A DNA stretch of 64,000 bases from Clostridia bacterium (lineage in GTDB: Bacteria; Bacillota; Clostridia; TANB77; CAG-508), in NCBI GenBank assembly GCA_017510525.1, contig JAFWNC010000008.1, forward strand, positions 11,119 to 75,118, in the 5' to 3' direction. This document shows positions 2,496 to 62,095 of the stretch, piece by piece. Every line of letters starts with the position of its first letter. Within the stretch, counting starts at the first letter, position 1. Under the pieces are notes generated by a model. The model did not search any database, was not told the origin of the DNA, and saw only the letters and a list, made by a program, of their open reading frames with translations. The translations under genes were made by a program, and so were the position numbers.

Positions 2496-2524
2496 GGGGC
2501 GGGCATGGAAACCCGCCCCTACAG
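2496..2524. repeat. GC-rich REP-like palindromic element (family 1)
   Basis: ggggcgggcatggaaacccgcccctacag. 8-bp GC stem. Nearly identical copy at 28994-29022. Confidence 0.7.
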
Positions 2525-2564
2525 TTGTTAATTTGGTGTTCGCTTAAAAATAAATGTTTTCATC

Positions 2565-2593
2565 TTGACTTATAGACTTTAAAGATATATTAT
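2565..2593 (+). promoter_or_regulatory. sigma-A-type promoter TTGACT-17-TATTAT
   Basis: ttgact 2565-2570, 17-nt spacer, tattat 2588-2593. Upstream of the 2629 start. Confidence 0.45.
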
Positions 2594-2628
2594 ATGTGTA
2601 CACTGTAATATATAAAGGAGGTACCTAT

Positions 2629-5592
2629 ATGGCTGATGACTATTCAAAAGCAAAAGAGATTCTAAAGAAATATAATCAGGAACATTTATTACTTAAATAT
2701 GATGAGCTTAGTAAGTCAAAGCAAAAAGAATTATTAAGTCAAATATTATCTATTAATTTTGATTTAATGAAAGAACTATATGAAAATGCTAATAAAAAGG
2801 TTGATTATAAAAAATCAAATATTGAACCTATTGAATATATTGATAAATCAAAACTAACTGTATCTGAGAGAAAAAGATATGAAGAAAAAGGTATAGAAGC
2901 CATTAAGCTAAATAAATTTGCAGTAGTAACTATGGCTGGTGGACAAGGCACTAGACTTGGTCATAATGGTCCAAAAGGAACTTTTGATATGGGTCTAGAT
3001 TCTCATAAATCTTTATTTGAGCTTTTATGCGAGACTCTTAAAAGAGCTAGAAGCGAATATGGTGTTGTTATTCCTTGGTATATTATGACAAGTAGAGAGA
3101 ATAATGAAGAAACAGTTAGGTTTTTTGAAAATAATAAATATTTTGGATATCCTAAAAATGCGGTTCATTTCTTTATTCAAGGTGAATTACCTATGCTTGA
3201 TTTAGAAGGTAAAATATTACTTGATGAAAATGGATTAGTAAAACAAGCTGCTGATGGACATGGTGGTACATTAAAAGCACTTGGTAAAAATAAAATACTT
3301 GATGAATGGAAAGAAAATGGAATTGAGTGGATTTTCGTAAGTGGTGTTGACAATGTTCTAGTAAAATCTGTTGATCCATTATTAATAGGAATGTCAATTG
3401 AAAATAAGGTATTAGGTGCTGTTAAAACAATAGAAAAAACTGATCCAGAGGAAAAGGTTGGTGTTTTCTGTAGAAAGAATAAAAAAGTTGCAGTAATGGA
3501 ATACACTGAGATCTCTCATGAAATGGCAAATATGAGAGATAAATATGGTGCATTGGTTTATGGTGATGCAAATGCTGTTTTCCATTTATACAATATCAAA
3601 GGCTTAGAGAGAGTAAGTAATATGAGATTACCTTATCATACTGCTGTTAAAAAAGCTAAATATATTGATAAAAAAGGAAAATTGATTATACCTGAAAAAC
3701 CAAATGCTTATAAATTTGAATTATTTATATTTGATTCATATGAGATGCTAGATGATGTAGTTGTTTTAAGAGTAAAAAGAGAAGAAGAATTTGCTCCAAT
3801 AAAAAATGCTGAAGGTGTCGACAGTCCGGAGACAGCTAGAAAATTGTATACGGATTACTGGAATAAAGTTGCTTATATGAAGAAATTTGAAGAATGGTGT
3901 ACAAATCCTTTAATTGATAGTGATACAAAAGAGGAGCTTTTAGATATTAGAGGAAATGATGAAGAAATAAAAGATAGATTTTATAAGGATCTAGATTTTG
4001 GAACAGCTGGACTAAGAGGAGTTATTGGAGCAGGAACAAATAGAATGAATAAATATACTGTTTCAAAGGCAACTCAAGGATTAGCAAATTATATTATAAA
4101 ACAAGGTACAGAGAGAAAAGGTGTTGTAATTGCATATGATTCTAGAAACATGTCTAGAGAGTTTAGTGAATATGCAGCGCTTTGTTTAAATGCTAATGGA
4201 ATTAAAACATTTATTTTTGATGAATTAAGACCTGTTCCAGAGTTATCATTTGCTGTTAGAGAATTAGGTGCTACAGCTGGTGTAATGATTACAGCAAGCC
4301 ATAATCCACCACAATATAATGGATATAAAGTATATTGGGATGATGGTGCACAAATTGTTGCTCCAAGAGATAGAGAGATAATTGATGAAGTAAATAAAGT
4401 TACTGATTATTCAATGGTTAAAACTATTTCAAGAGAAGAAGCAGGAAAAAGATGTTTATATCATACTATTGGAAAATCAATAGATGACATGTATAATAGA
4501 ACACTTAAGAATTTATCAATAAATCCTGATATTATTAAAGAAGTTGAAAAAGACATAAAAATTGTTTATACACCTCTTCATGGTGCTGGAAATAAAGCTG
4601 TTCAAAGAGTTCTTTCTGATCTTGGATTTACTAATGTATATGTTGTTCCAGAACAAGAATTACCTGATGGAAATTTCCCAACTGTTAGTTATCCAAACCC
4701 TGAAGAACCTAAAGCCTATGAATTAGCTTTAAAACTAGCTAAAAAGGTTGATGCTGATATTATTTTAGCTACAGACCCTGATTCTGATAGATTAGGTATT
4801 TTTGTTAAAAATGTTAAAACTGGTGAATATATTTTATATACAGGAAACATGACAGCATTATTAATTGCTGAATATATTCTTTCTCAAAGAAAAGAAAAAG
4901 GAACTCTTCCTAAAAATGGTGCTATTATAAAGACAATAGTTTCTTCAAATTTAACTGACGATATAGCTGATTTTTACAAAATGAAATTAATTGAAGTGTT
5001 AACTGGATTTAAATATATTGGAGAGCAAATAAGAGGATTTGAGAAAAATCATAAGCATGAATATGTTTTTGGTTTTGAAGAAAGTTTTGGTTGCTTAGTT
5101 GGAACACATGCAAGAGATAAAGACGGAATTGTTGCTGTAATGATGCTAGCTGAAGCGGCAGCTTTTTATAAAAAGCAAGGATTAACGTTATGGGATCAAA
5201 TGCTTAATATTTATGAGAAATATGGTTATTATAAAGAAGCTCAAACTTCAATTGTTCTAAGTGGAGCTGAAGGAGCTGAAAAGATTAAGGAACTTATGAA
5301 TAATTTAAGAAACAATCCTCCAAAAAAATTTGGAAAGTTCAAAATTGTAGCTATTAGGGATTATGATAAAGGTGTTCGAATTGAGCTTGAAACTGGAAAA
5401 GAGGAAAAGATTACTCTTCCTAAATCTAATGTTCTTTATTATGAGCTTGAAAATAATGAATGGTGTTGTGCAAGACCTTCTGGAACAGAGCCTAAAGTTA
5501 AGTTCTATATGGGGGTTAAGGGCAAAAACATGGAAGACGCTGAAGAAAGATTAGCAAATTTAAAAAGTGAAGTTTTAAATATAGTTGAATAA
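2629..5592 (+). CDS. bifunctional fusion: N-terminal UDP-sugar (UDP-GlcNAc/UDP-Glc) pyrophosphorylase (UDPGP/UAP family) joined to C-terminal alpha-D-phosphohexomutase (phosphoglucomutase/phosphomannomutase)
   Basis: Start MADDYSK follows AAAGGAGG. N-terminal half carries MAGGQGTRLG, WYIMTS and DGHGG (UDPGP family). C-terminal half carries GTAGLRG, TASHNPPQYNGYKVY, DPDSDR, GEESFG and RPSGTEPKVKFY (PGM family). A single uninterrupted frame; the internal MKKFEEW has no RBS. Confidence 0.8.
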   Translation: MADDYSKAKEILKKYNQEHLLLKYDELSKSKQKELLSQILSINFDLMKELYENANKKVDYKKSNIEPIEYIDKSKLTVSERKRYEEKGIEAIKLNKFAVVTMAGGQGTRLGHNGPKGTFDMGLDSHKSLFELLCETLKRARSEYGVVIPWYIMTSRENNEETVRFFENNKYFGYPKNAVHFFIQGELPMLDLEGKILLDENGLVKQAADGHGGTLKALGKNKILDEWKENGIEWIFVSGVDNVLVKSVDPLLIGMSIENKVLGAVKTIEKTDPEEKVGVFCRKNKKVAVMEYTEISHEMANMRDKYGALVYGDANAVFHLYNIKGLERVSNMRLPYHTAVKKAKYIDKKGKLIIPEKPNAYKFELFIFDSYEMLDDVVVLRVKREEEFAPIKNAEGVDSPETARKLYTDYWNKVAYMKKFEEWCTNPLIDSDTKEELLDIRGNDEEIKDRFYKDLDFGTAGLRGVIGAGTNRMNKYTVSKATQGLANYIIKQGTERKGVVIAYDSRNMSREFSEYAALCLNANGIKTFIFDELRPVPELSFAVRELGATAGVMITASHNPPQYNGYKVYWDDGAQIVAPRDREIIDEVNKVTDYSMVKTISREEAGKRCLYHTIGKSIDDMYNRTLKNLSINPDIIKEVEKDIKIVYTPLHGAGNKAVQRVLSDLGFTNVYVVPEQELPDGNFPTVSYPNPEEPKAYELALKLAKKVDADIILATDPDSDRLGIFVKNVKTGEYILYTGNMTALLIAEYILSQRKEKGTLPKNGAIIKTIVSSNLTDDIADFYKMKLIEVLTGFKYIGEQIRGFEKNHKHEYVFGFEESFGCLVGTHARDKDGIVAVMMLAEAAAFYKKQGLTLWDQMLNIYEKYGYYKEAQTSIVLSGAEGAEKIKELMNNLRNNPPKKFGKFKIVAIRDYDKGVRIELETGKEEKITLPKSNVLYYELENNEWCCARPSGTEPKVKFYMGVKGKNMEDAEERLANLKSEVLNIVE

Positions 5593-5596
5593 ACGT

Positions 5597-5630
5597 AAAA
5601 TTGGGCGGGGTTTCATCCCTGCCCAATTTT
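5597..5630 (+). terminator. GC-rich hairpin plus T-run; REP-like family 1 variant that also serves as terminator
   Basis: aaaattgggcggggtttcatccctgcccaatttt immediately after the stop codon. Confidence 0.6.
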
Positions 5631-5827
5631 ATCTTATATAAGCTCATTATTTTTTAATATAATATTGCTTTTTTTTAAAACATATAATAAAATAAGGACA
5701 CTATTTAGGGCTTTTACAAGTAATATATCACAAAAAGTAAAAAACTTTTTCTTGATTTTAATATAAAGTGACAATATTTTTAATAATTATAGTGTTTAAT
5801 TATAAGAAAAAGTAAGAGGTGGTAAGG

Positions 5828-8266: not shown

Positions 8267-8273
8267 AAAAGTA

Positions 8274-8302
8274 TTGACAAATTTTTTTTATGAACTTATA
8301 AT
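8274..8302 (+). promoter_or_regulatory. consensus sigma-A promoter TTGACA-17-TATAAT driving the metK leader
   Basis: ttgaca 8274-8279, tataat 8297-8302. Confidence 0.6.
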
Positions 8303-8311
8303 ACCTTTAAT

Positions 8312-8440
8312 ATATGTTATCGAGAGTGGACGAGAGAATCGGCTTTATGACTCCACAGCAACCTATTAATTTAGGTGCTAATACCGACAAAGTTACTTTT
8401 ATAGTGCTTTGGATGATGATTTATTAGATAGTATAGATTG
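8312..8440 (+). ncRNA. SAM-I (S-box) riboswitch leader of metK
   Basis: gttatcgagagtggacgagagaatcggctttatgactccacagcaacc...ggtgctaataccgac resembles the S-box core (YTTATCAAGAG...GCAACC...GGTGCTAAT). It sits 5' of metK and is followed by an intrinsic terminator. Confidence 0.55.
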
Positions 8441-8445
8441 TTAGA

Positions 8446-8478
8446 CCTTTGTGCTATTTAAGGCACAAGGGTTTTTTT
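8446..8478 (+). terminator. riboswitch expression-platform terminator
   Basis: cctttgtgctatttaaggcacaaggg followed by T7. Confidence 0.6.
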
Positions 8479-8488
8479 AAAACCTAAA

Positions 8489-8516
8489 CTGTAGGGGCGG
8501 GTTCCTATGCCCGCTA
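8489..8516. repeat. REP-like element, family 1
   Basis: ctgtaggggcgggttcctatgcccgcta. Confidence 0.6.
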
Positions 8517-8563
8517 AAGAATAACATATATGTAATAATAAATGTTGAAAGGAATGAAGTATT

Positions 8564-9706
8564 ATGAGAAAACTATTTACGTCAGAAAGTGTTACAGAAG
8601 GACATCCAGATAAATTGTGTGATTATATTTCAGATAGTGTTTTGGATAGTTTTTTTGCAGAAGATGAGAATTCAAGAGTTGCTTGTGAGACAGTAGCAGG
8701 AAAAGGAGTTGTTTTTATTACAGGAGAGATAAGTTCCAATGCTAATGTTGATATTGAGAAGGTTGCTAGAAATGCAATAAAAGAAGTTGGATATTTTGGA
8801 GAGAATTATGATATTGATTATAATACATGCAAAATTGTTGTTAATGTGTCTAAACAATCCCCAGATATTGCGCAAGGTGTGGATAATTCTTTAGAAGATA
8901 AAGAAGGAGAAGCGGTTAATTCAGAGGGAGCTGGAGATCAAGGATTAATGTTTGGATTTGCTTGTGATGAAACAGAGGAGTTAATGCCTCTTCCAATTTC
9001 ATTGGCTCATAAGCTTTCTAAGAAATTAACTGATGTTAGAAAAGAAGGAATAATTGACTATATAGGAGCTGATGGAAAAGTACAGGTTACTGTAGAATAT
9101 GAAGATTCAAATCCTGTAAGAATTGATACAATCGTTGTTTCAGTTCAACATAGAGAAGATGTTTCGTTAGATCAGCTTAAGAGAGATATTAAAGAAAAGG
9201 TAATTAAAGAAGTTGTACCACCAGAATTATTAGATGACAATACTAGATTTTTTATAAATCCAACAGGTAGATTTGTAATTGGCGGACCTTTAGGGGATAG
9301 CGGACTTACTGGAAGAAAAATTATTGTTGATACATATGGTGGATATAGTCGTCATGGTGGTGGCGCTTTTTCAGGAAAAGATCCAACAAAGGTTGATAGA
9401 TCTGCTGCTTATATGGCAAGACATGTTGCAAAAAATGTTGTTGCAAATGGATATGCTAAAAGGTGTGAAATCCAGTTCGCTTATAGTATTGGTGTAGCTA
9501 AACCGGTTTCAATTTATATTGATACCTTTGGAACTAATAGTATTCCTGAAAGTGAAATATTAGATAAGATTAATAAAAAATTTGATTTAACACCAAGAGG
9601 TATTATTAATTATTTAGAACTAAGAAAACCTATTTATAGAAAGACAACCAATTATGGCCATTTTGGAAGGGAAGGACTTCCATGGGAAGAAGTTATAGAA
9701 TTATAA
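8564..9706 (+). CDS. metK: S-adenosylmethionine synthetase
   Basis: [20 protein letters not shown]..., [12 protein letters not shown], full length 380 aa. Confidence 0.95.
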
Positions 9707-9715
9707 AAAAGTTTG

Positions 9716-9740
9716 TAGCGGAGAACTTGAGTTCTCCATA
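9716..9740. repeat. family-2 palindromic element TAGCGGAGAACT-NN-AGTTCTCCATA
   Basis: tagcggagaacttgagttctccata. It contains GAAC-N4-GTTC. Other copies at 14858, 22736, 29045 and 35436. Confidence 0.6.
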
Positions 9741-9741
9741 A

Positions 9742-9762
9742 GTGGCGAAGCCACTTTTTTTT
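9742..9762 (+). terminator. intrinsic terminator of metK
   Basis: gtggcgaagccac followed by T8. Confidence 0.7.
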
Positions 9763-9842
9763 ATTATTTCTATTGAAATTTAGGTGGCGTTTGTGATATA
9801 GTTAGTTTGTAAAATTATAACTGTATAATTCAAGGAGGATGT

Positions 9843-11411: not shown

Positions 11412-11443
11412 AAAATAAAATTACAAAAGAGGAGAGATATATC

Positions 11444-12682: not shown

Positions 12683-12685
12683 TAA

Positions 12686-15005: not shown

Positions 15006-18000
15006 ATGTATTTGAAGAGATTGGAATTGCAAGGATTTAAGTCATTTGCTGATAAAACAGTTTTAGATTTTATGCCAGGAATAACTACTGTTATAGGACC
15101 TAATGGATCAGGAAAAAGTAATATTTCTGATGCCATTAGGTGGGTTTTAGGTGAGCAGAGTATGAAATCACTAAGAGGGTCTAAAACAGAAGATGTTATT
15201 TTTGCTGGAACACAGGCAAGAAAATCTTTAGGATTTGCTGAGGTTTCTATTATTTTTGATAATCAGGATGGAAAGCTACCTATTGAATTTAGTGAAGTTA
15301 CAGTAACTAGAAGAATTTATAGAAGTGGTGAGTCTGGTTATTTTATTAATAAAACACCTTGTAGATTAAAGGATATTTTAGAACTTTTAATGGATACAGG
15401 TATTGGTAAAGACGGATATTCAATTATTGGACAAGGAAAAATTGACGAAATTCTAAGCAATAAATCTGAAGAAAGAAGACATATTTTTGAGGAAGCTGCT
15501 GGAATTGTTAAATACAGAACAAGAAAAGTTGAATCTGAGAAAAAGTTAGAGCAAACAAAGCTTAATTTACTTAGAATAAATGATATATTATCAGAAATCG
15601 AATCAAATATTGAACCTTTAAAAATACAATCTGAAAAAGCAAAGAAATTCCTAGACTTGCGTGAAGAGCTAAAGAGCATAGAAATAGGTCTATTTATACA
15701 TAATATTGAGCAATATAAGCTTAAAATAGATGAGATTATTAAAGAAGAAGATATTTTTTCTACTCAAAGTGTTAGAGAAGAAGAAAGATTATCTAATATT
15801 CAAGAACAAAAGGAAAATCTAAAAAAAGCAATTGATGATATAACAACTAAAATAGAGGAAATGCAGGCATTAAGCTTTGAAAGTGAGAAAAAGAAAGAAC
15901 AGTTTAATTCTGAGATTCAGATAAACCAAGAAAGAATTGTTAATAATAAAGAGAATTATGATAGATTTGCAGTTGAAATTGAAGAATCAAAGAAAATGAT
16001 TGAAGAACTTGAAGAAGAGAAGAATCAGAAAGAGAGTAAAAAATCAAATTTGTTTGAAAATAAAAAGAAATTTGCTGATGAACTAGAGGAGAAAGAAAAA
16101 CAGCTTAAAGAAATTACAGAAAAACTATCTAATGAAGAGATTGAAATTGAAGGGAAAAAACAGCAAGTTGATAAAAATATTGATGACAAGTTTGAAATGG
16201 GAAATACAATCAGTACTTTGGTTGCAAATATTGAAAATGCTGATAAAAGAATAGTTGCAATAAATCAAGAAATTTCAAATTATGTTTCAGAATTAGATAG
16301 CTCTAGGATTAAAAAGAGTGAGATAGATTCAGGATTTTATGAAATTGAAGCTAAGAGAAATCAAATAAAGAATAATTTATTAGAAATTGATGAGAAGCGT
16401 AAGAACTATGAAGCAAAACTAAAAGGATTTGTTGATAATATTAATAATATCGAATCACAAATTAGATTTAAAGATTCTAGATTGCATTTCTTAGAAGAAA
16501 CAGAAAAAGAAAAAGAGGGTTATGTTAGAAGTGTAAAAGCAATACTTACTGATTGTGAGAAAAATATTAGCTTGAAGAAGGGAGTTCATGGGGTTTTAGC
16601 AAATCTTATTTCTGTTCCTAAAGAATACGAAACAGCGATAGAGATGACTTTAGGACAAGCAATGCAAAACATTGTTACAGATACAGAGCAAGATGCTAAA
16701 AAATTAGTTGAACATTTAAGAGTTAATAAACTTGGAAGAGCTTCGTTTTTGCCAATTTCGTCAGTTAAAGGTAAAAAACTTGATAAAATTAGTAAAACCG
16801 GCGGAGTAATTGGAATTGCTTCTGACCTAATCAAATATGATAAAAAATATGATGGTATTGTTCAGAATCTATTAGGTAGAACTGTAATTGTTGATACAAT
16901 GGATAATGCTATTTTCCTAGCAAAACAGTTTAAATATAGTTTTAAGATTGTAACATTAGAAGGAGATGTTATAAACCCATCTGGAATGATTTCTGGTGGT
17001 AGTGTTGCCCAGAAAACTGTAAATATTTTAGGTCGTTCTAGAGAAATAGAAGATTTGAAGAAAGAAATCAAAAATTTAAAAGCGAAATTAGAAAAAACAA
17101 TCAAAGAAAAAGAAGACTATGAAACAGAAATGGAAGATACAATTGAGCTTGTTGCTTCTTTCGAAAAAGAAATGCAAGATAGTGAGATTGTTTATGCTAC
17201 TGAAAAACAGAAGGTTATTTCTATTGAAAATGAGATTTCTAAAATTGAGGAAAGACTTGAAAGAGTAAAGAAAGAAAAGGAAGACCTTGAAAGTCAGAAA
17301 AAAGACAATTTAAAAATTCAAGATGATTTGAAAGAAAGAATTAAAGAAATTGAAACTCAAAATGAAGAGTTGAATAAGGAAATTACTGAATTTGCAGTAA
17401 GAAATAAAGATAAACAAAAAGATATAGATGACTTAAATTTTGATATTACAAACTTAAAAATCTCAGTTTCTTCTTTTGATGAAAGTGAAGTATCTATTAA
17501 AGAAATGATTGAGAGAATTGATAGTGATATTGAAAAAACTAATGTAGTTATTGAAAATAAGACAAAGCAAAGAGAAAAGATTTTAGAGGATAATAAGGCT
17601 TTAGAAGAAAAAATTGAAGAGCTTAAATTAGAAATTGAGAAATTAAAAGATGATGTTGAAAATGGAAATACAAAAGTAACAGACTTAAAAGAAGAAAGAG
17701 TAAATAAAAACAAAAAATTAGAGGAGACAGAAGAGGAGATAACTTCTCAGATTGAAAAGATTGATGGATTAAAAGACCAAATATCTAAATGTGAGGTTCG
17801 TAAATCTAAAAATGAATATGAATTAGAACAAGTTATAACTAAAATGTGGGAAGAATATGAAATTACTCCTCTTGATCCTGGAGAATATACTAAACCTGAG
17901 AATGTTAAAGAAGTTGAGAAAAAAGTTTCTTCTATTAGAGGAGAAATTAAAGAACTTGGAAGTATTAATATAGACGCAATTGAGGAATATAAACAATTAA

Positions 18001-19538: not shown

Positions 19539-19563
19539 AGGGCGGGGATGGAACCCCGCCCAC
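19539..19563. repeat. REP-like element, family 1
   Basis: aagggcggggatggaaccccgcccac. Confidence 0.6.
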
Positions 19564-20722: not shown

Positions 20723-20752
20723 ATCGGGCGGGGACAAGCCCCGCCCCTACAG
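20723..20752. repeat. REP-like element, family 1
   Basis: atcgggcggggacaagccccgcccctacag. Confidence 0.65.
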
Positions 20753-20774: not shown

Positions 20775-20803
20775 GTAGGGGGTGGGGTTTGTCCCCACCC
20801 GAT
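20775..20803. repeat. REP-like element, family 1, inverted orientation (G>A variant)
   Basis: gtagggggtggggtttgtccccacccgatg. It pairs convergently with the copy at 20723. Confidence 0.6.
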
Positions 20804-20840: not shown

Positions 20841-22733
20841 ATGGGAAGAGACAATAAAATGCTTGATTATTTCAAGAAATTGCCAAAGTTTAAATTTAAA
20901 AAGATTAAAATGGAAGACTTAGATGATATTGAAGAGCTTAAAGAAGGATATTCAAGTTCTGAAACTGAAAAAAGAGAAAAACCTAAAAAAGGTGAGCATT
21001 ATCCAGAAACACATTATGAAACAATTAAAGAAGTATATTTAGATTCAATGAAAAAGTTTAGTGACAGAGTTTTTATTTTAGATAAAAATGATCCAAAGGA
21101 AGAAAAGTTTAGAGAATATACATACAAAGAATTTGGAGATGATGTTGAAGCTCTAGGAACTGCACTAACAAAGAAATATAATGTTCAAGGTGAAAAAATT
21201 GTTATTATTGGTGAAAATCAATATGACTGGTATGTATCATATATTTCTGTTTTATTAGGAGCTGGTTTAGCTGTTCCTGTTGATAAGGAACTTCCAGAGA
21301 ATGAGATAGAGAATGTTGTAAATAGATCAAAGGCTTCTGTTGTTATTTATTCGCCTCATATAAAAGACAGAATTAATAATATAATGGGAAATTTACCAAC
21401 TGTTAAGTATTTTATAGAAATGAAAAGTAATTCTAAGTTAGAAGGAAAAGTGGTTGGTTTTGATAAGGTAGTTTCTGAAGGTAAAGAACTTATTAAAAAA
21501 GGTGATGATTCTTTCTTGAAGATTAAGATTGATCCTGATGAGTTTAAAGCATTATTCTTCACATCAGGAACAACAGCTAACAGTAAAGGTGTAATGGTTA
21601 ATAATAGACAACTGGCTAACAATGTTAATGCGGTTTCTGCATATGTTAAAATAGATGAAGAAGACAGGTTCTTCTCGGTATTACCTTTACATCATACATA
21701 TGAATCAAGTATTGGTTTCTTAATTCCTTTGGCAAATGGATCATCAATAGCTGTATGTCAAGGGTTGAGATATATTTCTGAGAATTTAAAAGAAACTAAG
21801 CCTAGTGTTTTAATAGCTGTTCCTCTTTTGATTGAAAACTTATATAAAAACATTATGAAAAATATTAAGAAGAGTAAAAAAGAAATAATGGTTTCATCTA
21901 TGATGCAGCTTACTAATGTTTTAAAAGGTGTTGGAATAGATGTTAAAAGAAAAGTGTTTAAAGAGATATATGAAGGTGTTGGTGGAAACCTAGAGTTTAT
22001 AGTTTCTGCTGCAGCTCCAATTGATAAGAAAGTTGGAAAATGGTTTACTGATTTAGGTGTTATTTTCCTTCAAGGATATGGATTAACTGAGACTTCGCCA
22101 ATTTCAGCGGTTACACCTGACTATGATACTAGAGTAGGTTCTGCTGGTAAAACTATTATTAATGGAAAAGTAAAGGTTGATAATCCTGATGAAAATGGAG
22201 AAGGTGAATTAGTTATTTCAACTGGTACTTTGATGATGGGATATTATGAAGATCAAGATGCAACTGATGAAGTTATAGAATATGATGAAGAAGGAAGAAG
22301 ATGGTTCCATTCTGGTGATATTGGATATATAGATAAAGATGACTTTATTTATATAACTGGAAGAATAAAGAATGTTATTGTTACTCAAAATGGTAAAAAT
22401 ATTTTCCCTGAGGAGTTAGAGCTTTTATTAGCTGGAGTTGAAGAAATTGAAGAGTGCATGGTTTATGGAAAAGAGGTTGAAGACCAAAAAGAATTAATCG
22501 TAACATGTAGAGCTATTCCAAATTATGATAGAATTAAAGAGCTTTATGGTGAAAAGACTGAGAAAGAGATTTATGATATTATTTGGAATAAGATTAAGTT
22601 GATGAATAAAAAGGTTACAACTTATAAGGCTATAAAGGGTCTAGAAATCAAAGATGGCGAGTTTATAAAAACAACAACAAAGAAAATTAAGAGATTTGTT
22701 GAGATTAAAGAAGGAAAAATAAAAGAGATATAA
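20841..22733 (+). CDS. long-chain fatty-acid-CoA ligase / AMP-dependent synthetase
   Basis: AMP-binding signature FFTSGTTANSKGVMV. YGLTETS and GDIG motifs. 630 aa. Confidence 0.8.
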   Translation: MGRDNKMLDYFKKLPKFKFKKIKMEDLDDIEELKEGYSSSETEKREKPKKGEHYPETHYETIKEVYLDSMKKFSDRVFILDKNDPKEEKFREYTYKEFGDDVEALGTALTKKYNVQGEKIVIIGENQYDWYVSYISVLLGAGLAVPVDKELPENEIENVVNRSKASVVIYSPHIKDRINNIMGNLPTVKYFIEMKSNSKLEGKVVGFDKVVSEGKELIKKGDDSFLKIKIDPDEFKALFFTSGTTANSKGVMVNNRQLANNVNAVSAYVKIDEEDRFFSVLPLHHTYESSIGFLIPLANGSSIAVCQGLRYISENLKETKPSVLIAVPLLIENLYKNIMKNIKKSKKEIMVSSMMQLTNVLKGVGIDVKRKVFKEIYEGVGGNLEFIVSAAAPIDKKVGKWFTDLGVIFLQGYGLTETSPISAVTPDYDTRVGSAGKTIINGKVKVDNPDENGEGELVISTGTLMMGYYEDQDATDEVIEYDEEGRRWFHSGDIGYIDKDDFIYITGRIKNVIVTQNGKNIFPEELELLLAGVEEIEECMVYGKEVEDQKELIVTCRAIPNYDRIKELYGEKTEKEIYDIIWNKIKLMNKKVTTYKAIKGLEIKDGEFIKTTTKKIKRFVEIKEGKIKEI

Positions 22734-22735: not shown

Positions 22736-22760
22736 ATGGAGAACTCTAGTTATCCGCTAC
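22736..22760. repeat. family-2 palindromic element (reverse orientation, degenerate)
   Basis: atggagaactctagttatccgctac. Confidence 0.5.
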
Positions 22761-23597: not shown

Positions 23598-23652
23598 GTA
23601 GGGGCACATTGCAATGTGCCCCTACGGTTTGTTGAACATAGTTCAACAAACG
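23598..23652. repeat. REP-like element (gtaggggcacattgcaatgtgcccctac) followed by an AT hairpin
   Basis: Perfect GTAGGGGC...GCCCCTAC termini, then ggtttgttgaacatagttcaacaaacg. Confidence 0.65.
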
Positions 23653-26027: not shown

Positions 26028-26042
26028 ATTTGTAGGGGCGAC

Positions 26043-26093
26043 CATTGGTCGTCCGAGGGCTGGGACAAGCCCCGCCCCTACAATTTTATTGAT
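26043..26093. repeat. composite REP-like element (gtaggggcgaccattggtcgtccgagg + gggacaagccccgcccctaca)
   Basis: The same composite recurs at 49541, 60927 and 62052. Confidence 0.7.
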
Positions 26094-28512: not shown

Positions 28513-28558
28513 AGGGTATTGCTTCGAAGAGCGGACGAGCAATGCTCGCCCATACATG
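28513..28558. repeat. REP-like element, sub-family ggacgagcaatgctcgcc
   Basis: agggtattgcttcgaagagcggacgagcaatgctcgcccatacatg. Related to the units at 34817-34862. Confidence 0.6.
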
Positions 28559-28993: not shown

Positions 28994-29022
28994 AAGGGGC
29001 GGGCATGGAAACCTGCCCCTAC
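28994..29022. repeat. REP-like element, family 1
   Basis: aaggggcgggcatggaaacctgcccctac. Near-identical to the copy at 2496. Confidence 0.7.
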
Positions 29023-29044
29023 GAATCATATGTCACAAGCGTTG

Positions 29045-29070
29045 TAGCGGAGAACTAGAGTTCTCCATAT
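29045..29070. repeat. family-2 palindromic element
   Basis: tagcggagaactagagttctccatat. Confidence 0.6.
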
Positions 29071-33980: not shown

Positions 33981-34013
33981 GTAGGGGCGACGTTAGCGTT
34001 GCCCGATTTTTTT
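33981..34013 (+). terminator. REP-like GC hairpin plus T7 (terminator of minC)
   Basis: gtaggggcgacgttagcgttgcccgattttttt. Confidence 0.6.
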
Positions 34014-34115
34014 GACTTTTGGGGACGCGGGTGGAAATGGGGACGGTTCTCTTTTCCAAGGAAAACTTGGAAAAGAGAACCGTCCCCATTTCCACCCGCG
34101 TCCCCAAAAGTCAAA
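34011..34115. repeat. perfect 105-bp hairpin palindrome (50-bp arms, 5-nt loop)
   Basis: tttgacttttggggacgcgggtggaaatggggacggttctcttttccaag | gaaaa | exact reverse complement. Verified base by base. Confidence 0.9.
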
Positions 34116-34117
34116 AG

Positions 34118-34465
34118 TCATAGGTCTATTAGGTTTGTTAGGTCTAGGTCTAGGAGGATTAGGATTATTGCTATGTATAAATACCAATCTGTGCAGTTTT
34201 CGAAGAATAGGAATAGTAGTATTCCGTAGAGGATTAGGTCGTCGAGTTGTAGGGGAATGTTGAAATGCGACATTATGGTGTTTAGTGTGGTGTTGCGGGA
34301 ATCGGGGGTTTCAATTTGATTTTCGCCAATTTGGGGTTGTAGGGGCATATTGCTAATAGTGCCCCCTACGGTATTGGGTGGGATGTTTTTGGGTTGTGGT
34401 GGCCATGGGTTATTGGTTCTGTATTCATATGGGCTATAGGGCGGGTATATTGTGTTGTATGGCAT
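34118..34465 (-). CDS. small Pro/Tyr-rich protein (MPYNTIYPPYSPYEYRTNNPWPPQP...), possible spore-coat-like; doubtful gene
   Basis: ATG overlaps the stop of the upstream gene (TAATG). A REP-like element (34339-34369) is translated in-frame. Confidence 0.35.
   Translation of the reverse strand: MPYNTIYPPYSPYEYRTNNPWPPQPKNIPPNTVGGTISNMPLQPQIGENQIETPDSRNTTLNTIMSHFNIPLQLDDLILYGILLFLFFENCTDWYLYIAIILILLDLDLTNLIDL
34339..34369. repeat. REP-like element
   Basis: gtaggggcatattgctaatagtgccccctac. Confidence 0.65.
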
Positions 34466-34816: not shown

Positions 34817-34914
34817 ATTGGGTATGCTTTCGTAGAATGGACGAGCAATGCTCGCCCCTACAATATTGGGTATGGCGTTGTAGAATGGGTACATTGCTAA
34901 TAGTGCCCTACTAT
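34817..34914. repeat. tandem pair of REP-like units
   Basis: ttgggtatgctttcgtagaatgg-ACGAGCAATGCTCG-cccctaca, then ttgggtatggcgttgtagaatgg-GTACATTGCTAATAGTGC-cctacta. Confidence 0.6.
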
Positions 34915-49504: not shown

Positions 49505-49535
49505 AAGGCAAAGGGACTGACCCTTTGCCTTTTCG
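49505..49535 (+). terminator. intrinsic terminator of the A-B operon
   Basis: aaggcaaagggactgaccctttgcctt followed by ttcgg. Confidence 0.6.
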
Positions 49536-49540: not shown

Positions 49541-49592
49541 GTAGGGGCGACCATTGGTCGTCCGAGGACGGGGGTGGAACCCCGCCCCTACA
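49541..49592. repeat. composite REP-like element
   Basis: gtaggggcgaccattggtcgtccgaggacgggggtggaaccccgcccctaca. Confidence 0.7.
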
Positions 49593-49602: not shown

Positions 49603-49651
49603 TGGGGACGCGCACCAAATCAAACATTGGGCGGGGACAAGCCCAACCCCA
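49603..49651. repeat. REP-like element (degenerate)
   Basis: ggggacgcgcaccaaatcaaacattgggcggggacaagcccaacccc. Confidence 0.5.
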
Positions 49652-54803: not shown

Positions 54804-54804
54804 T

Positions 54805-57800: not shown

Positions 57801-59880
57801 ATTCGTAACTTATGAAGTTGATAAAGGTGGAGCAGAAAATCCAACAAGAAACTTATTAGGTGAAAAGAATAATGTAGCTGAAATTGCAAGTTACTCAAGT
57901 TATAACTTAGATGGAAGTGTAGCTGGTAAAATCGATAGAGATTCAGCTCCAAATAATATTAAGTTAGATAAAGTAACTGATAAAGCTTGGTATGAAGATG
58001 ATACAGAATCTGCACCAGCTATTAAGATTGAACTTACAGACTTTGTAAACAGAGAAATAAATGGTGTTGTTTGGGAAGATAAAGAAACTAATACAATTAA
58101 GTTTGACCAAAAAGTAGCTAATGGTTACTTAGATGATGATGAAACTAGAATTCCAGATGTTGATGTAGAATTAGTTGAAAAGATTACAGTTGACGGAAAA
58201 GAATATGAACACATTTGGAAAAATGAAGATATTAAGAATTTCAAAGATGTAAATCCTGAAAATTATGAATTAGATGTAACTACAAATGATGATGGTGAAT
58301 ATACATTCAAAGGTGTTCTTGCTGGTAACTATGTAGTAAGATTTAAATATGGTAATAAAGATTCACTTGCTAAATATAATGGACAAGATTACAAAAATAC
58401 AGCTTATGAAGCAGGATTAACAGATTTAAATCAAGAATGGCAAGATATTAAATCAGATGCAGAAGTAAATAATAGAGATAGAAGAGTATCAGATGCTAGA
58501 GATTATGAACCACAAAGAATGAGAGTTATAGCATATTCTAAGACAATTGATAATAACAAGGGTACAATATTAGAAAGTGCTGATAATGGAGCAGATCATA
58601 GTGAATTAATTAAGAATACTCAAATGGTTGCTAATACAGCTAAATTAAACTTAGAGATTGAACATCCTGATTATATTACAGAGAACAAATTAACTGATGG
58701 TACTGTTGAAAGAAAATATGTTGTAAACGGAATTGACTTCGGTTTAGAGCAAAGATCTGAAACAGCTATTGAGTTAAGCAAGAATATTTCTAAGATTACA
58801 TTAATGAAGAATGACGGAATAGATACAATCATGGAAGTAATTATTAATGAAGATGGATCAATTGATTTTGAAAAATCAATTCAAGGTGATAAACTAATCA
58901 ATATAGCTCAAGTTGGAAATACTCAGGGTATTAGATTTGCTAATATTGAAAAATCATACTTAAATAATATGTCAATTAGTTTAGAGTATACAATTAAAGC
59001 TAAAAATACTTCTGAAGTTGACTGGACAGGTGATATTGCTGATTTAGCAACAAGTGAAATCTCAGCAAAAGCTGATGAATTAGCAGATACTTATGATATC
59101 CCTGGTGGAGTTACTTATGGTAGATATGTAGGTAATAACTACTATACAAATACAAATAATAATTCTGATAGAATTGTTAAGACAAATGTAAATCAAATAA
59201 TTGATTACATTGATAATGATATTGGAATGGACGTTAAAGCAAACCAAAATGTTGAAAACCATGCTTGGAAAAATGTTAAAGCAGATGAATTAAGAAGAGT
59301 TCTAGCTGATAGCGTATATAATACAGAAGGTAAGATCGTTGACAATAAAGGAATATCTTTCGAAGGAAATGGTAAATCTAATATAGTTGTAACAGAAGAC
59401 GGAAACTATAATCCAGATGTAGTTGCTGAGTTAGTTCCTACAAGTGCAGCAAGTGAAGGAAAAACAACAGGAAGAATTAAGATTACAACATCTAAGACAA
59501 CATCATCAGATGCTGATTCAAGTGATTTGAACTTCAACAATATGGTTGAAATCTTAAGTTACTCTAATACAGTAGGTAGAAGAGATATGAATGCAGTTCC
59601 TGGTAACGCAGAAATTTCTAGAGGTGCTTATGAAGCAGCAACAGGATATAAGAACAATACTCTAATTGCTGACTATGAAGGTGCTAAAGAAATAAACGGA
59701 CAACATCTAAACGGTGAGAGAGATACAGCTGCTGCAGACTTATTAACATTCACTGAACCTACAGGTTTAGATGTACAAGAAGAAACTACAACAAATTATA
59801 TGGTTGCAATTCTAAGTGCTTCAATAGTAATTGCTGCAGGAATAATGGTTACAATGTTATTTGTATTCAAAAGAAAATAA
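54805..59880 (+). CDS. giant secreted surface protein D (1691 aa), paralogue of B
   Basis: Starts 1 nt after the C stop. Signal peptide. N-terminal domain with LLCSEEG and YVQQAWW (matches the thioester Gln motif hydrophobic-Q-[DENQ]-hydrophobic-hydrophobic-W). PT-rich linker plus DDDDDDD. CnaB-like GVVWEDKETN...GNYVVRFKYGNKD. C-terminus ...LTFTEPTGLD, then 12 polar residues, a TM segment, and KRK. Confidence 0.8.
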   Translation: MNRKKIFIEILIFILITALAAIGYNVTAAITTEMASKGIGYPSGYPTITLSDLINNYNLLCSEEGRALPGSSATTVVSGKRSKDIPYPSYGQVAFTTGETKSSRNPFSYAESETLSRYKTSGPVTAVPEEAYILSEMTENTNGNTGVFYNVTDVRYEGEIIDSYAIPVRDESDYIYGVDLDSNGEPTAYVVKEESDYYYVDINQVGSDYFPYTYVQQAWWSSPAGSTGNPVTQNDFSVEAKEFDKYIKSVRKGTDTVDKTVTVNGTTVTVPAPIIDYQVTSTMNNATVNYNEETRKYLIGPFTLNFPEWVTTSTDRGEVRFAGISNMDLKGIQVNGSSSQEITIDHSNWDIQYSNVREESGALSEYPHDGEEFYIVLDYIEGVTKISDIKVDFKYMNAGATYENLTGKYNIVSWTPKTEVVSDGEWPIYIHTLECTAIDSKTSQKLALGVEAARWYEHADYSLFNGDLVVKDEPIPTPTPVITPNPITPTPGRTIPPYTADDDDDDDYSRKKKKVIELTIPIEGEVWIDTKQDKANGNVTEGKRDDGEKGYKNAEVYVYKVYKNNGTEVKRELAKIYEKDNDKELSFPIYTDENGKYTIPKILVPGTEDKNNKYDIEYDVVFKFDGQTYTASNPLPTANGDAKTYINASRAEKDSKYASDSLASENATERDTYNKKFETITGDKAMDDSGNTEGKAGNLKLDYTSEAVTYKDNTKRRSKLTTLDSNGHIIEQYKMIASTANTGIYVPVNHEITKDNADSVTSTVDKHGNKTTTTYHTIYNYMKHINLAVKEREESDLGVLKDLYKAKIVVNEKEITKKFNTLVDFEDAKYAEFLNIQLENAQTKSYKLGLYNSDYEYRSTVYEKEVDQVKAVKTGETGSLTDTNLRVFLTYKIAVFNEGSYDMVINDLNDYYDKTFTLVTEEQKANIVDGDTRTAKVVAEPSYYRVIGSTESPKYDYTSNGMTRFDWASSEATANDSYKKGNITSFSGLKLHPGEQLQLFVTYEVDKGGAENPTRNLLGEKNNVAEIASYSSYNLDGSVAGKIDRDSAPNNIKLDKVTDKAWYEDDTESAPAIKIELTDFVNREINGVVWEDKETNTIKFDQKVANGYLDDDETRIPDVDVELVEKITVDGKEYEHIWKNEDIKNFKDVNPENYELDVTTNDDGEYTFKGVLAGNYVVRFKYGNKDSLAKYNGQDYKNTAYEAGLTDLNQEWQDIKSDAEVNNRDRRVSDARDYEPQRMRVIAYSKTIDNNKGTILESADNGADHSELIKNTQMVANTAKLNLEIEHPDYITENKLTDGTVERKYVVNGIDFGLEQRSETAIELSKNISKITLMKNDGIDTIMEVIINEDGSIDFEKSIQGDKLINIAQVGNTQGIRFANIEKSYLNNMSISLEYTIKAKNTSEVDWTGDIADLATSEISAKADELADTYDIPGGVTYGRYVGNNYYTNTNNNSDRIVKTNVNQIIDYIDNDIGMDVKANQNVENHAWKNVKADELRRVLADSVYNTEGKIVDNKGISFEGNGKSNIVVTEDGNYNPDVVAELVPTSAASEGKTTGRIKITTSKTTSSDADSSDLNFNNMVEILSYSNTVGRRDMNAVPGNAEISRGAYEAATGYKNNTLIADYEGAKEINGQHLNGERDTAAADLLTFTEPTGLDVQEETTTNYMVAILSASIVIAAGIMVTMLFVFKRK

Positions 59881-59892
59881 CAATCCTATAAT

Positions 59893-59943
59893 ATAGAAAA
59901 GAAAAGGCGCACGTCAATATGCCAGACGAGCGTCTTTTCTTTT
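59893..59943. terminator. putative A/T-flanked hairpin after the C-D operon
   Basis: gaaaagaaaaggcgcacgtcaatatgccagacgagcgtcttttctttt. Confidence 0.35.
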
Positions 59944-59970
59944 AAATTAATAAATGGAATAGAGAAATCT

Positions 59971-60000
59971 GTAGGGGCCGGGTTCCATCCCCGCCCTATT
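59971..60000. repeat. REP-like element, family 1
   Basis: gtaggggccgggttccatccccgccctatt. Confidence 0.6.
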
Positions 60001-60060
60001 GAAAAACAAACATTTTTCTTGTATAATATATAAAAATTAAAAATAAGGGGAATATTTTAA

Positions 60061-60930
60061 ATGGATAGATTGATTAGATGTTTAGCGTATGGAGGAAAGG
60101 TTAGTGTTACTTTGATTTCTTCTAGTGAATTGGTTGAAAAGGCGAGAGTGACTCATGATTTAACTCCTACAACTACAGCAGCTCTTGGACGTTTATTAAC
60201 AATTGGTGAGTTAATTGGAGCTGGACTTAAAAATGATAAAGAGAGTTTTACAATTCAGGTAAAAGGCGATGGTCCTATTGGAAATTGTGTTTGTGTTGTA
60301 AATTATGGATTAAAAATTAAGGGATATGTTCAAAATCCTTTAGTAGAACTTCCTTTAAAGGAAAACGGAAAAATTGACGTTGGTGGAGCTGTTGGTAGAA
60401 ATGGATTTATTAATGTTATTAAAGATATGGGAATGAAAGAGCCTTATGTTGGTGTTACTCCAATTGTAACAGGTGAAATTGCTGAGGATTTTGTTAGATT
60501 TTTTGCTGAGTCTGAGCAACAGCCTTCTGTTGTTTCGTTAGGCGTTTTAGTTGATAAAGATGGTGTTAAATCAAGTGGAGGGTATTTAGTTACATTAATG
60601 CCTGATGCTGATGAAGATGTTATTTCTAGGTTGGAAGAGAACCTTAATAAGGTTCCACCAATTAGTAGTATGCTTGAAAAAAATGCAAGTTTGGAAGAGA
60701 TTGCAGAAATTGTTACCGGTGATTCAAATATTTTTGTTCTAGAGGGAGAAGATGTTCCTAAATTTGTTTGCGATTGTAATAGAGAAAGGTTTGAAAGAGG
60801 ATTGATTTCTCTTGGAAAAGAGGAATTAAAGAATGTTTTGAAAACCGATAATAAGATTGAAACAGTTTGTAATTTTTGTGGAAAAAAATATGTGTTTAAT
60901 AAAGATGATATAGAAAAATTGATGATGTAG
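60061..60930 (+). CDS. hslO: Hsp33 redox-regulated chaperone
   Basis: 289 aa. C-terminal zinc centre CDCNRERF...CNFCGKKY. Confidence 0.85.
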   Translation: MDRLIRCLAYGGKVSVTLISSSELVEKARVTHDLTPTTTAALGRLLTIGELIGAGLKNDKESFTIQVKGDGPIGNCVCVVNYGLKIKGYVQNPLVELPLKENGKIDVGGAVGRNGFINVIKDMGMKEPYVGVTPIVTGEIAEDFVRFFAESEQQPSVVSLGVLVDKDGVKSSGGYLVTLMPDADEDVISRLEENLNKVPPISSMLEKNASLEEIAEIVTGDSNIFVLEGEDVPKFVCDCNRERFERGLISLGKEELKNVLKTDNKIETVCNFCGKKYVFNKDDIEKLMM

Positions 60931-60970
60931 GGGCGACCATTAGTCGTCCGTGGACGTGGTTTACCACGCC
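60927..60970. repeat. composite REP-like element
   Basis: gtaggggcgaccattagtcgtccgtggacgtggtttaccacgcc. Confidence 0.6.
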
Positions 60971-61014
60971 AATATAAATAAAAACAAAAAATAAAATAAA
61001 TGGAGGTGCTTTTT

Positions 61015-61263
61015 ATGGAGTTTTCATATCAACCGAAGGGAGTTTGTTCATATAATATGAAATTTGTAGTTGATGGAGATATTATAAAAGAAGTGGTAAT
61101 TGAAGGTGGTTGTATGGGAAATACAGCTGGTATTTCAAAGCTTCTTATTGGAATGAAGGTTGAAGATGCAATTAAAAGATTAAAGGGGATTGACTGTAGA
61201 GGTAGAGGGACTTCTTGCCCAGATCAAATTGCAAAAGCTTTAGAAAAGTATATGGAAGGGTAG
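61015..61263 (+). CDS. TSCPD-domain protein (TIGR03905-like)
   Basis: CRGRGTSCPDQIAKAL. Start MEFSYQPKG follows GGAGGTG. Confidence 0.7.
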   Translation: MEFSYQPKGVCSYNMKFVVDGDIIKEVVIEGGCMGNTAGISKLLIGMKVEDAIKRLKGIDCRGRGTSCPDQIAKALEKYMEG

Positions 61264-61327
61264 GGGCGAATCCCTTATTTCCCAGGAAATCGACTGAAAA
61301 TGTAACAAAAATGTAATATAAAAAACA

Positions 61328-61355
61328 TTGACAAAAGTGTTTTCTAACGTATAAT
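61328..61355 (+). promoter_or_regulatory. consensus sigma-A promoter TTGACA-16-TATAAT
   Basis: ttgaca 61328-61333, tataat 61350-61355. About 35 nt upstream of the 61388 gene. Confidence 0.55.
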
Positions 61356-61387
61356 GAGTTGGTCTTTAGATCGAAAAAAGGAGATTT

Positions 61388-62047
61388 TTGTCGGAAATGG
61401 AAAATATAATTGTTAATGTTGAAAATGAATTTATGAAATTAAACTCAAAAACTATTAATGAGTATTCTAGCGTTATAGGGGATTTAGACTTTAATAATAT
61501 AAAAATATTGAATTTTGAAGATGAGAATAAGACTGTAAATTTCTTGTTCTATGGTTCTGATTTCTTCGCATATAATAGAGTTAATTTTAAGAATGATTAT
61601 GAGTATAATAAAGGCAAAGATTATATTGAAATTAGCGAAAACTTAAATACTAAAATTCAAAAGATTCCAAATGTTGCTAAAACAAGAGGAATTTTGAAGA
61701 TTGATGATATTGAAGCTAGAATATATGATATGGGTGAATACATTTTATTATTAACAAGAGATGAAACAAGAATATTAAAGGTTAAAGCTGAAGGTGACAT
61801 TAGTGATATTACGTATACTAAACCTGAAGTACAAATTGACAAAATTAAAGAAAATATCGACTTGCTAATATTAGAAGAAGAGGCTAGATTAAAGGAAGAA
61901 AGAAGTTTTAAGAATAAAATCAAAAGAATTAAAATTAAAATTACAAATTATGTATCAGAGCCAATTAGATTTATAAGACAAAAATTATTTAAAACTAGTG
62001 AAATTAAGATGTTAAGTGAAGGAAAACATAGTATATTTGATAAATAA
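61388..62047 (+). CDS. hypothetical protein, 219 aa
   Basis: TTG start at 61388 (or ATG at 61397) after AAAAGGAG. No family recognised. Confidence 0.5.
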   Translation: MSEMENIIVNVENEFMKLNSKTINEYSSVIGDLDFNNIKILNFEDENKTVNFLFYGSDFFAYNRVNFKNDYEYNKGKDYIEISENLNTKIQKIPNVAKTRGILKIDDIEARIYDMGEYILLLTRDETRILKVKAEGDISDITYTKPEVQIDKIKENIDLLILEEEARLKEERSFKNKIKRIKIKITNYVSEPIRFIRQKLFKTSEIKMLSEGKHSIFDK

Positions 62048-62051
62048 TTGT

Positions 62052-62095
62052 ATGGGCGACCATTGGTCGTCCGAGGGTGGGGCTTGTCCCCACCA
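62052..62095. repeat. composite REP-like element
   Basis: gggcgaccattggtcgtccgagggtggggcttgtccccacc. Confidence 0.65.

Follow-up and report, generated by a model that had tools for sequence, protein, structure and literature searches.

Probable REP elements of the REP/RAYT kind between the genes of a low-GC Clostridia genome from ruminant gut metagenomes

The stretch of DNA analysed in this work, hereafter the window, is a 64-kb part of contig JAFWNC010000008.1 of a Clostridia bacterium. The spacers between its genes carry short GC-rich hairpins that are very probably repetitive extragenic palindromic (REP) elements, which are short non-autonomous mobile DNA, of the kind associated with REP-associated tyrosine transposases (RAYTs). 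The genes in the window include SpoIIR, SpoIIE, metK, SMC, TatD, RF1, UvrD/PcrA, MinC, Hsp33, and GatCAB, and this set of genes marks the organism as a spore-forming member of the Clostridia. Its genome was assembled from ruminant gut metagenomes. The RF1 of 'Candidatus Merdicola faecigallinarum' shares 88% identity with that of the window, and the protein look-up for MinC (at about 34 kb) gave no record. Nearly all genes are on the plus strand, and the GC skew is positive throughout except in the first 2 kb. The GC content of the whole window is 29% and ranges from 24 to 33% among its 2-kb bins. The sequence of this organism's genome that was examined comprises 82 kb, which is the window with 8-kb extensions on either side (L127 and L130). 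Contigs that were independently assembled from other samples are 99-100% identical to the window over their common parts, thus the repeats are no assembly artefact.

The initial annotation of the window described a family of GC-rich palindromic intergenic repeats in an AT-rich backbone, and both the family and the GC contrast are real. A total of 22 islands with at least 70% GC (20-bp sliding window) were identified against the backbone of 24-33% GC. The motif GTAGGGGC has 16 copies, compared to 0.22 expected from dinucleotide-preserving shuffles, and GTAGGGG has 19 copies, compared to about 1.8 expected from base composition. Nearly all GTAGGG sites (19/20) extend to GTAGGGG. We catalogued 23 hairpin units (R1 to R23) that are spread over 16 intergenic sites. 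The non-coding share of the window is 12.4%, and it holds at least 22 of the 23 units (binomial P = 2e-19). Only about half of the intergenic gaps (16 of about 33) carry a unit, instead of almost every gap as had been stated. The enrichment extends past the window, where four further units are found in its 16-kb flanks.

Each unit usually consists of a T, a GTAG foot, and immediately a GC-rich hairpin, with a total length of about 25 nt. The stems are 7-9 bp long (mostly 8-9), the loops are 3-8 nt long, and the GTAG or GTAT lies 0 nt from the stem. All types, when folded as single-stranded DNA, form the hairpin and leave the foot unpaired (z-scores between -3.2 and -6.5). The foot, either GTAG or GTAT, is present in 16 single-foot and two double-foot units. 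It is replaced by GTAT in two units (R10 and R22) and absent in five (R2, R4, R18, R21, and R23). GTAG-footed hairpins have a density of about 0.3 per kb in the window. The units are arranged as singles, inverted doublets, or 'double-foot' palindromes. At least 12 units are singlets, and the doublets comprise four tight ones with spacers of 2-4 nt and one spaced pair; the halves of the doublets are of different hairpin types. Most units begin 3-14 nt past the stop codons of co-directional genes. Sequence inspection of the window and the loci of its relatives identified no target-site duplication at any copy, the double-foot and doublet copies included.

The hairpins were sorted into types. Type A1 has GGGGCGGG-TTTCCATG-CCCGCCCC and type A2 has GGGCGGGG-CTTGT-CCCCGCCC after GTAG. 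Type B has GGGGCGACC-ATT-GGTCGTCC, type C has GGGGCGAGC-ATT-GCTCGTCC, and type D has GGGCGACG-TTAG-CGTTGCCC. Types E and F are longer palindromes that contain AT. Types B, C, and D have a G-T pair at the identical stem position and are set apart by compensatory swaps, where B and C differ by the change of C-G to G-C. The repeating unit is thus one GTAG foot with one hairpin and not GTAGGGGC...GCCCCTAC as had been proposed. The two motifs do stand at both ends of R7, R13, and the doublets R8/R9 and R16/R17, though not of the other units, and the search pattern based on them, GTAGGGG[CT]N(8-40)[AG]CCCCTAC, has only three matches in the window. The composite variant of the initial annotation does recur at four sites. 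Two of its copies start at 26032 and 62050 instead of 26043 and 62052, and those at 60927 and 62050 are degenerate.

The units are described here from left to right, with the strand given for those with a single foot. R1 (2495..2522, minus) is of type A1 and begins 40 nt past the stop codon of the open reading frame (ORF) 1976..2455. R2 (5603..5624) is A1-like without the GTAG foot and lies 11 nt past the stop codon of ORF 2596..5592. R3 (8491..8514, plus) is of type A1 and lies in the metK leader, 3' of the S-adenosylmethionine (SAM) riboswitch and of the riboswitch's own terminator. The order in this leader is riboswitch, terminator (8444-8480), inserted R3, and ribosome-binding site. This riboswitch (RF00162, 8314-8422, 67.7 bits) is the sole Rfam match in the window, and none of the known RNA families in Rfam 15 matched the hairpins at the gathering score. 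R4 (19540..19561) is a footless A1 that lies 7 nt past the TatD stop codon and has borderline T-rich tails. R5 (20723..20750, minus) is of type A2 and follows the RF1 stop codon. It forms an inverted pair, with feet inward and a 24-bp spacer, with R6 (20775..20800, plus), an A2 variant with GGGGGTGGGG-TTTGT-CCCCACCC. R7 (23598..23625) is a double-foot unit of type E, where GTAGGGGCACATTGCAATGTGCCCCTAC is a perfect 28-nt palindrome. R8 (26032..26054, plus) is of type B, GTAGGGGCGACCATTGGTCGTCC, with an 8-bp stem that includes one G-T pair. It begins 5 nt past the UvrD/PcrA stop codon and is the left half of a doublet, and its exact 23-mer recurs in at least 85 other genomes. The right half is R9 (26057..26081, minus), which is of type A2 with its foot outside. 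R10 (28533..28555, minus) is of type C with its foot mutated to GTAT and lies 5' of the AGGAGG and ATG of a minus-strand gene. R11 (28996..29022, minus) is of type A1 with one stem mismatch.

R12 (33981..34004, plus) is of type D, begins 7 nt past the MinC stop codon, and has a clear T-run, GATTTTTTTG. R13 (34339..34369) is a double-foot unit of type F that lies in frame within ORF 34118..34465 on the minus strand. This ORF is a putative gene that encodes 115 amino acids with a proline-rich composition and a hydrophobic tail, where the R13 part encodes NTVGGTISNMPLQ; it has no Pfam match. A second, decayed GTAGGGG site at 34249 also lies inside it. R14 (34839..34861, minus) is of type C, GTAGGGGCGAGCATTGCTCGTCC, an exact 23-mer that is also found in other genomes. 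R15 (34886..34911, minus) is a degenerate type F in tandem with R14. R16 (49541..49563, plus) is of type B, identical to R8, and follows a real terminator at 49507-49533. R17 (49566..49591, minus), an A1 variant, is the right half of the R16/R17 doublet. R18 (49629..49650) is a degenerate, footless A2. R19 (59971..59997, plus) is an A1 variant. Four consecutive very large ORFs of 1,622, 3,049, 1,632, and 1,691 amino acids occupy 35483-59880. They encode surface proteins, and the third has matches to the surface-protein repeat domains CLIPPER and SdrD_B. Two of the gaps among these ORFs are not overlapping or adjacent, and both are marked by REPs.

The last units lie around Hsp33. R20 (60927..60949, plus) is a type B variant with an ATTAGT loop, and Hsp33 (60061..60930) ends within its foot, whose TAG serves as the stop codon. 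Its degenerate partner R21 (60951..60970) is the footless GGACGTGG-TTTA-CCACGCC. A foot-only remnant (61260..61270, plus), GTAGGGGCGAA, has no REP hairpin, and the TSCPD-domain ORF 61000..61263 likewise uses the TAG of this foot as its stop codon. REP insertion therefore set the C-termini of both proteins. R22 (62050..62072, plus) is of type B with a GTAT foot and begins 3 nt past the stop codon of ORF 61388..62047. Its partner R23 (62077..62094) is A2-like and footless, and a real terminator then follows within about 62115-62145.

The exact 23-mer GTAGGGGCGA(C/G)CATTG(C/G)TCGTCC was scanned in one genome per species. At least 119 stretches in at least 85 assemblies, all of other species, were identified. 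The hosts among the matches listed are nearly all gut Clostridia (Oscillospiraceae, Faecousia, Acutalibacteraceae, Ruminococcus, and 'Eubacteriales'), the GC content of the listed loci ranges from 26 to 62%, and no contigs of the window's own species are among the stretches listed. The 131 copies among the matches listed have unrelated flanks and sharp boundaries. Position -1 is a pyrimidine in 126/131, position -2 is T or C in 98/131, and position +23 is G in 121/131 of these copies. The GTAG and the pyrimidine at position -1 are conserved in them. The base counts at the two variable stem positions are mirror images (C 75 and G 56 against G 75 and C 56 among the matches listed). Across all loci retrieved, 442 of the 602 GTAGGGG sites (73%) precede a stem of 7 bp or more, compared to 8% in shuffles. 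The stem arms that follow GTAGGGG in these loci are of 107 different kinds, therefore the conserved feature is the foot with a hairpin and no particular sequence.

The SMC-TatD-RF1-UvrD region was compared among three relatives, L133, L134, and L135, in which RF1 is 96%, 94%, and 89% identical to that of the window. The genes are syntenic in all three relatives and the spacers differ. In the TatD-RF1 spacer, where the window holds R4, L133 carries three different GTAG hairpins, L134 a further one, and L135 none. In the Zip-UvrD spacer, where the window holds the double-foot R7, L133 retains a decayed remnant and L134 has no element. At the site of the R8/R9 doublet, L133 has a footless GGCGAGCGTTGCTCGC followed by a T-run (16371-16400). 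This terminator resembles a type C REP without its foot, and it may derive from a REP that was co-opted for termination. L135 has no GTAGGGG across 21 kb. Orthologous sites have differing REPs or none, therefore the elements turn over by insertion. Such a pattern is expected of insertion and decay and not of conserved regulatory structures. No REP insertion or deletion was identified among the same-species contigs that are 99-100% identical. Synteny with another locus, L052, stops upstream of gatC.

Homologues of RAYT were identified beside the same REP in other genomes. The tblastn search with E. coli RayT (b0228, NC_000913) matched ORFs in L018, L028, L054, L057, and L109 (E = 1e-7 to 3e-10). 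The clustering of 1,313 ORFs from the 23-mer loci (at least 119 listed) identified one small family that is linked to the element, which consists of the same RayT-matching ORFs, and no other recurrent neighbour gene. The Clostridial RAYT proteins are 160-170 amino acids long. Three of them scored 62.9-65.3 bits (E of about 1e-17) against the NCBIfam equivalog REP_Tyr_transpos (NF047646). Their sole relative in the PDB is 4ER8, the E. coli TnpA-REP (E = 4e-12). The residues of the HUH, WQ, and Y...N motifs (H90, H92, Q132, Y152, and N156) do not vary when the proteins are aligned with E. coli RayT; this test of the catalytic motifs used RAYT proteins of other genomes. The family has at least 7,983 proteins at E <= 1e-10, some of which are labelled 'REP element-mobilizing transposase RayT' by JGI.

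The RAYT gene flanked by repeats that the initial annotation had proposed to look for does occur in other genomes with the identical 23-nt REP, though not within the 82 kb of this genome. RAYT lies next to REPs in L028, L018, L054, L109, and L216. L028 has the layout of a REPtron, where the RAYT gene has four flanking and two internal REPs. In L216-L218 (contigs of 51% GC), the RAYT P0305 immediately follows dnaA-dnaN-recF-gyrB-gyrA-RNase H in the vicinity of the replication origin. The contig also carries clean REPINs (inverted REP doublets) of about 90 bp, with two inverted C/B-type REPs and spacers of about 45 nt. In the 54 RAYT loci that have 3 kb or more of flanking sequence, the coding GC of RAYT (REPs masked) is correlated with the host GC (r = 0.86) and is about 10 points lower (44% compared to 54%). 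This tracking of the host fits long residence and not constant transfer. Three RAYTs that were chosen for their AT-rich amino-acid composition (P0114, P0305, and P0267) came from contigs of 41-51% GC and gave no low-GC hosts, because RAYT genes in general have a higher AT content than the genomes that carry them.

Metagenomes were scanned with the RAYT alignment, which yielded 80 loci. In 56 of these, the RAYT gene contains exactly two REPs, both in frame, of which one is forward and the other reverse. The internal REPs are 167-240 nt apart (mode 194-197) and lie on either side of the HUH motif, so the internal inverted pair is in effect a REPIN that straddles the HUH-coding segment. The internal arms are nearly always of one hairpin type per gene and differ among genes. 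Of the REP-like hairpins outside the RAYT gene, 41% match the internal type of their own locus (up to 3 mismatches in 16), compared to 5.4% for other loci. The hairpin types of the window are also found inside RAYT genes. R1 of type A1 matches the REP inside the RAYT gene of L092 except for the final base. The dominant RAYT clade has types B and C as its two internal REPs, which there code for VGATIGRP or VGASIARP, and GRPMVAPT, and which occur in 94 of the top 120 proteins. Both types occur together in single RAYT genes (L126, L145, and L147-149), which matches their co-occurrence in the window. It is conceivable, although doubtful, that each REP family has its master or seed copy in the RAYT gene itself, or that the RAYT gene is regulated by its own product binding the internal hairpins. 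Either would explain the matching of REP and RAYT and the conservation of one 23-nt REP letter for letter in at least 85 species of 26-62% GC.

The sequence features that define REPs are all present in the window, namely the foot, the hairpin of 7-9 bp, multiple copies, extragenic sites, the absence of target duplication, and doublets. This anatomy and the RAYT homologues beside identical REPs elsewhere support the REP/RAYT reading of the initial annotation. The E. coli TnpA-REP requires a 5' GTAG and an imperfect hairpin for binding, cleaves at CT, and can transfer strands (PMC3479197). A similar RAYT (TnpA-REP), an HUH/Y1 enzyme of the IS200/IS605 superfamily, would recognise the units as single-stranded DNA hairpins. 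By analogy with the E. coli enzyme, it would bind the hairpin and read the GTAG foot base by base. It would then cut at a nearby pyrimidine-T dinucleotide via a 5'-phosphotyrosine link and move the strand to a new single-stranded site without target duplication. Selection would leave copies mostly in the harmless few nucleotides past stop codons. The unpaired GTAG, the hairpin that often has one G-T pair, and the pyrimidine-rich positions -2 and -1 point to the same cut-and-transfer chemistry on single-stranded DNA. We infer that the RAYT is encoded, now or formerly, elsewhere in this genome. The REPs may also have a side effect on mRNA stability.

Several observations weigh against the assignment to the REP/RAYT kind. 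No RAYT was identified by tblastn in the window, its 8-kb extensions, or the 21-kb loci of the three relatives. The queries were E. coli RayT and eight Clostridial RAYTs, and they matched only REP-encoded peptides, with P0070 at the R1 site and P0305 at the R14 site, where there is no RAYT gene. The scores of the Clostridial RAYTs are under the curated 80-bit cut-off of NF047646, which places these homologues outside the equivalog. The Pfam Y1_Tnp match is weak, and two of the three proteins are just under its threshold. As judged from their sequences, these homologues are divergent and their activity is putative. Of the 80 RAYT loci from metagenomes, only about 30 have REPs outside the gene within 1 kb. 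The foot or hairpin has been lost or mutated in 8 of the 23 units, in addition to the foot-only remnant, therefore the family may have lost its activity in this lineage, in part or entirely.

The hairpins could accordingly be REPs by origin that are now fossils, where the RAYT has been lost and the hairpins are relics or features adopted by the host, for example as stabilisers of mRNA 3' ends. We consider this rather unlikely. The five footless units, the two GTAT feet, and the foot-only remnant fit such decay, as do the lack of RAYT in 82 kb of this genome and 63 kb of its relatives and the lack of copies in the close relative L135 (21 kb). However, all 23 nt of R8 and R16 agree, R8 and R14 match the cross-species consensus exactly, and several hairpins are perfect. 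REP content also varies even where RF1 is 94-96% identical, which indicates that REPs have recently been gained as well as lost. A genome usually has one copy of the RAYT gene, so its absence from 82 kb is expected.

Mobile REPs of the REP/RAYT kind also account for the data better than two explanations that involve no REPs. The hairpins as usual intrinsic terminators, or as hairpins that stabilise RNA 3' ends, with an incidental GTAG, would suit the position of most units 3-14 nt past the stop codons of co-directional genes. The initial annotation held that some units carry T-runs and double as terminators; this applies clearly to R12 and borderline to R2 and R4 (1-3 of the 23 units), where R4 was flagged by the terminator scan. 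The footless C-type-like hairpin with a T-run at the doublet site in L133 is a further such case. However, 20 of the 23 units have no T-run on either strand, and separate, AT-richer terminators with a hairpin and T-run adjoin REPs at 8444-8480, 9740-9756, 49507-49533, and about 62115-62145. We reject the terminator reading on these two grounds. The feet are also oriented 8 plus and 8 minus despite nearly one-way transcription, the GTAG and -1 pyrimidine are conserved amid unrelated flanks in at least 85 genomes (131 copies among the matches listed), and orthologous sites in relatives have no elements. The terminator explanation is thus very improbable. Miniature inverted-repeat transposable elements of a DDE-type insertion sequence, with GTAGGGGC/GCCCCTAC as terminal inverted repeats, are hardly credible. 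The motif does stand at both ends of 23598-23625, 26032-26081, and 49541-49591, but most units have a single foot, target-site duplications are absent, and the halves of doublets are different hairpin types. The 23-mer loci (at least 119) have no recurrent DDE transposase, and their sole recurrent gene linked to the element is the Y1 RAYT.

Other palindromes were also identified in the window. A second GTAG-footed family with about 50% GC, GTAGC-GGAGAAC-TnGA-GTTCTCC, has three copies in the window compared to 0 expected, which lie just past stop codons. S1 (9715..9737, plus), GTAGC with GGAGAAC-TTGA-GTTCTCC, lies 9 nt past the metK stop codon and ends just 5' of the terminator at 9740-9756. 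S2 (22738..22760, minus) has one mismatch and lies 5 nt past the stop codon of ORF 20841..22733. S3 (29044..29066, plus) adjoins R11. A further copy is located in the extension L130 (1382-1399). This family was overlooked by the initial annotation because it is not GC-rich. The spacer between minC and the minus-strand small ORFs has a 107-bp perfect palindrome (34010-34116) that is rich in GGGGACG, with 51-nt arms and a 5-nt centre. It is not a REP, given that it has no GTAG foot, and a role as bidirectional terminator was rejected since its flanks are the wrong way round. Related motifs are located at 49603 and in L127 at 14145, and L134 has similar GGGGACGG...CCGTCCCC palindromes in two spacers.

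The window hairpins may be part of a REP-RAYT system that extends across gut Clostridia and is so far undescribed as such. Full-text literature searches and the supplements of two survey papers gave no description of REPs in Clostridia or Oscillospirales, and Clostridia are mentioned only for RAYT group 1 in Bertels et al. (2017). Knowledge of REP/RAYT is almost wholly proteobacterial, and the same system would be found here in low-GC uncultured gut Clostridia as islands of 60-80% GC. The hairpins matter for annotation, where they give spurious small ORFs, provide stop codons, and can lie in frame within genes. They also matter for metagenome assembly and binning, where a 23-mer common to at least 85 species gives rise to chimeric joins. 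The RAYT family of at least 7,983 proteins, with its co-varying internal REP pairs, is a large natural dataset on the co-evolution of transposase and hairpin. REP/RAYT systems, double-foot REPs, and REPs inside the transposase gene are already known, and the window itself is ordinary. The co-varying internal REP pair and the letter-perfect REP in at least 85 species might be worth following up by specialists.

REP elements are well known in E. coli and Pseudomonas. The Clostridial units are similar to the REPs and bacterial interspersed mosaic elements (BIMEs) of E. coli in the 5' GTAG foot at the hairpin's base and in the extragenic copies that often lie just 3' of genes. Their inverted doublets join two different hairpin types as the Y and Z REPs do in E. 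coli BIMEs. The cognate protein in other Clostridia genomes is an HUH/Y1 protein whose catalytic residues align with those of E. coli TnpA-REP (RayT, b0228; 4ER8). However, the E. coli REPs are about 35 nt long and bulged, whereas the Clostridial hairpins are shorter, with an 8-bp stem and a loop of 3-8 nt. The Clostridial proteins have no long C-terminal tail and are about 28% identical to E. coli RayT. The host is a low-GC Firmicute, and the Clostridial RAYT genes have REPs inside the reading frame, unlike E. coli.

REPs have been recognised by GT[AG]G at 0-2 nt 5' of the hairpin foot (PMC6006769). The closest class described appears to be RAYT subclass 2.4 (Quentin et al., 2018; PMC6006769), which is equal to Bertels group 4, consists mainly of proteins from Cyanobacteria and Bacteroidetes, and has a median length of 194 amino acids. 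Its motifs NH[IFV]H, WQ, and YIxNNP resemble PNHIH, IWQ, and YI(x)(E/N)NP of the Clostridial RAYTs, which would correspond to subclass 2.4 by these motifs alone, as matched by eye. Double-foot REPs, such as R7 and R13 in the window, and in-frame REPs within the RAYT gene are common to both, and REP insertions within tnpA-REP genes have already been reported for this subclass (PMC6006769). The Clostridial proteins differ in their length of 160-170 amino acids and their occurrence in gut Clostridia. The regular co-varying internal REP pair was apparently not reported by Quentin et al. (2018).

The units share with IS200/IS605 elements (IS608 and ISDra2) a Y1 HUH enzyme, a single-stranded DNA hairpin with a 5' guide tetranucleotide, and the absence of target duplication. 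They differ in that the REPs do not flank the transposase as a single insertion sequence unit and are non-autonomous elements of about 25 nt. One 23-nt REP is common to at least 85 species, whereas the known proteobacterial REPs are largely species-specific. The REPIN-RAYT system of Pseudomonas (Bertels and Rainey, 2011; PMC3116915) also exhibits a GTAG-type foot, a short GC-rich hairpin, and inverted doublets, which are its likely replicating unit (PMC3116915). The doublets in the window are composed of two hairpin types with a spacer of 2-4 nt, and most units are singlets, unlike the Pseudomonas REPINs. The REP sequence itself may resemble those of Pseudomonas. In both systems the base composition of RAYT tracks that of the host.

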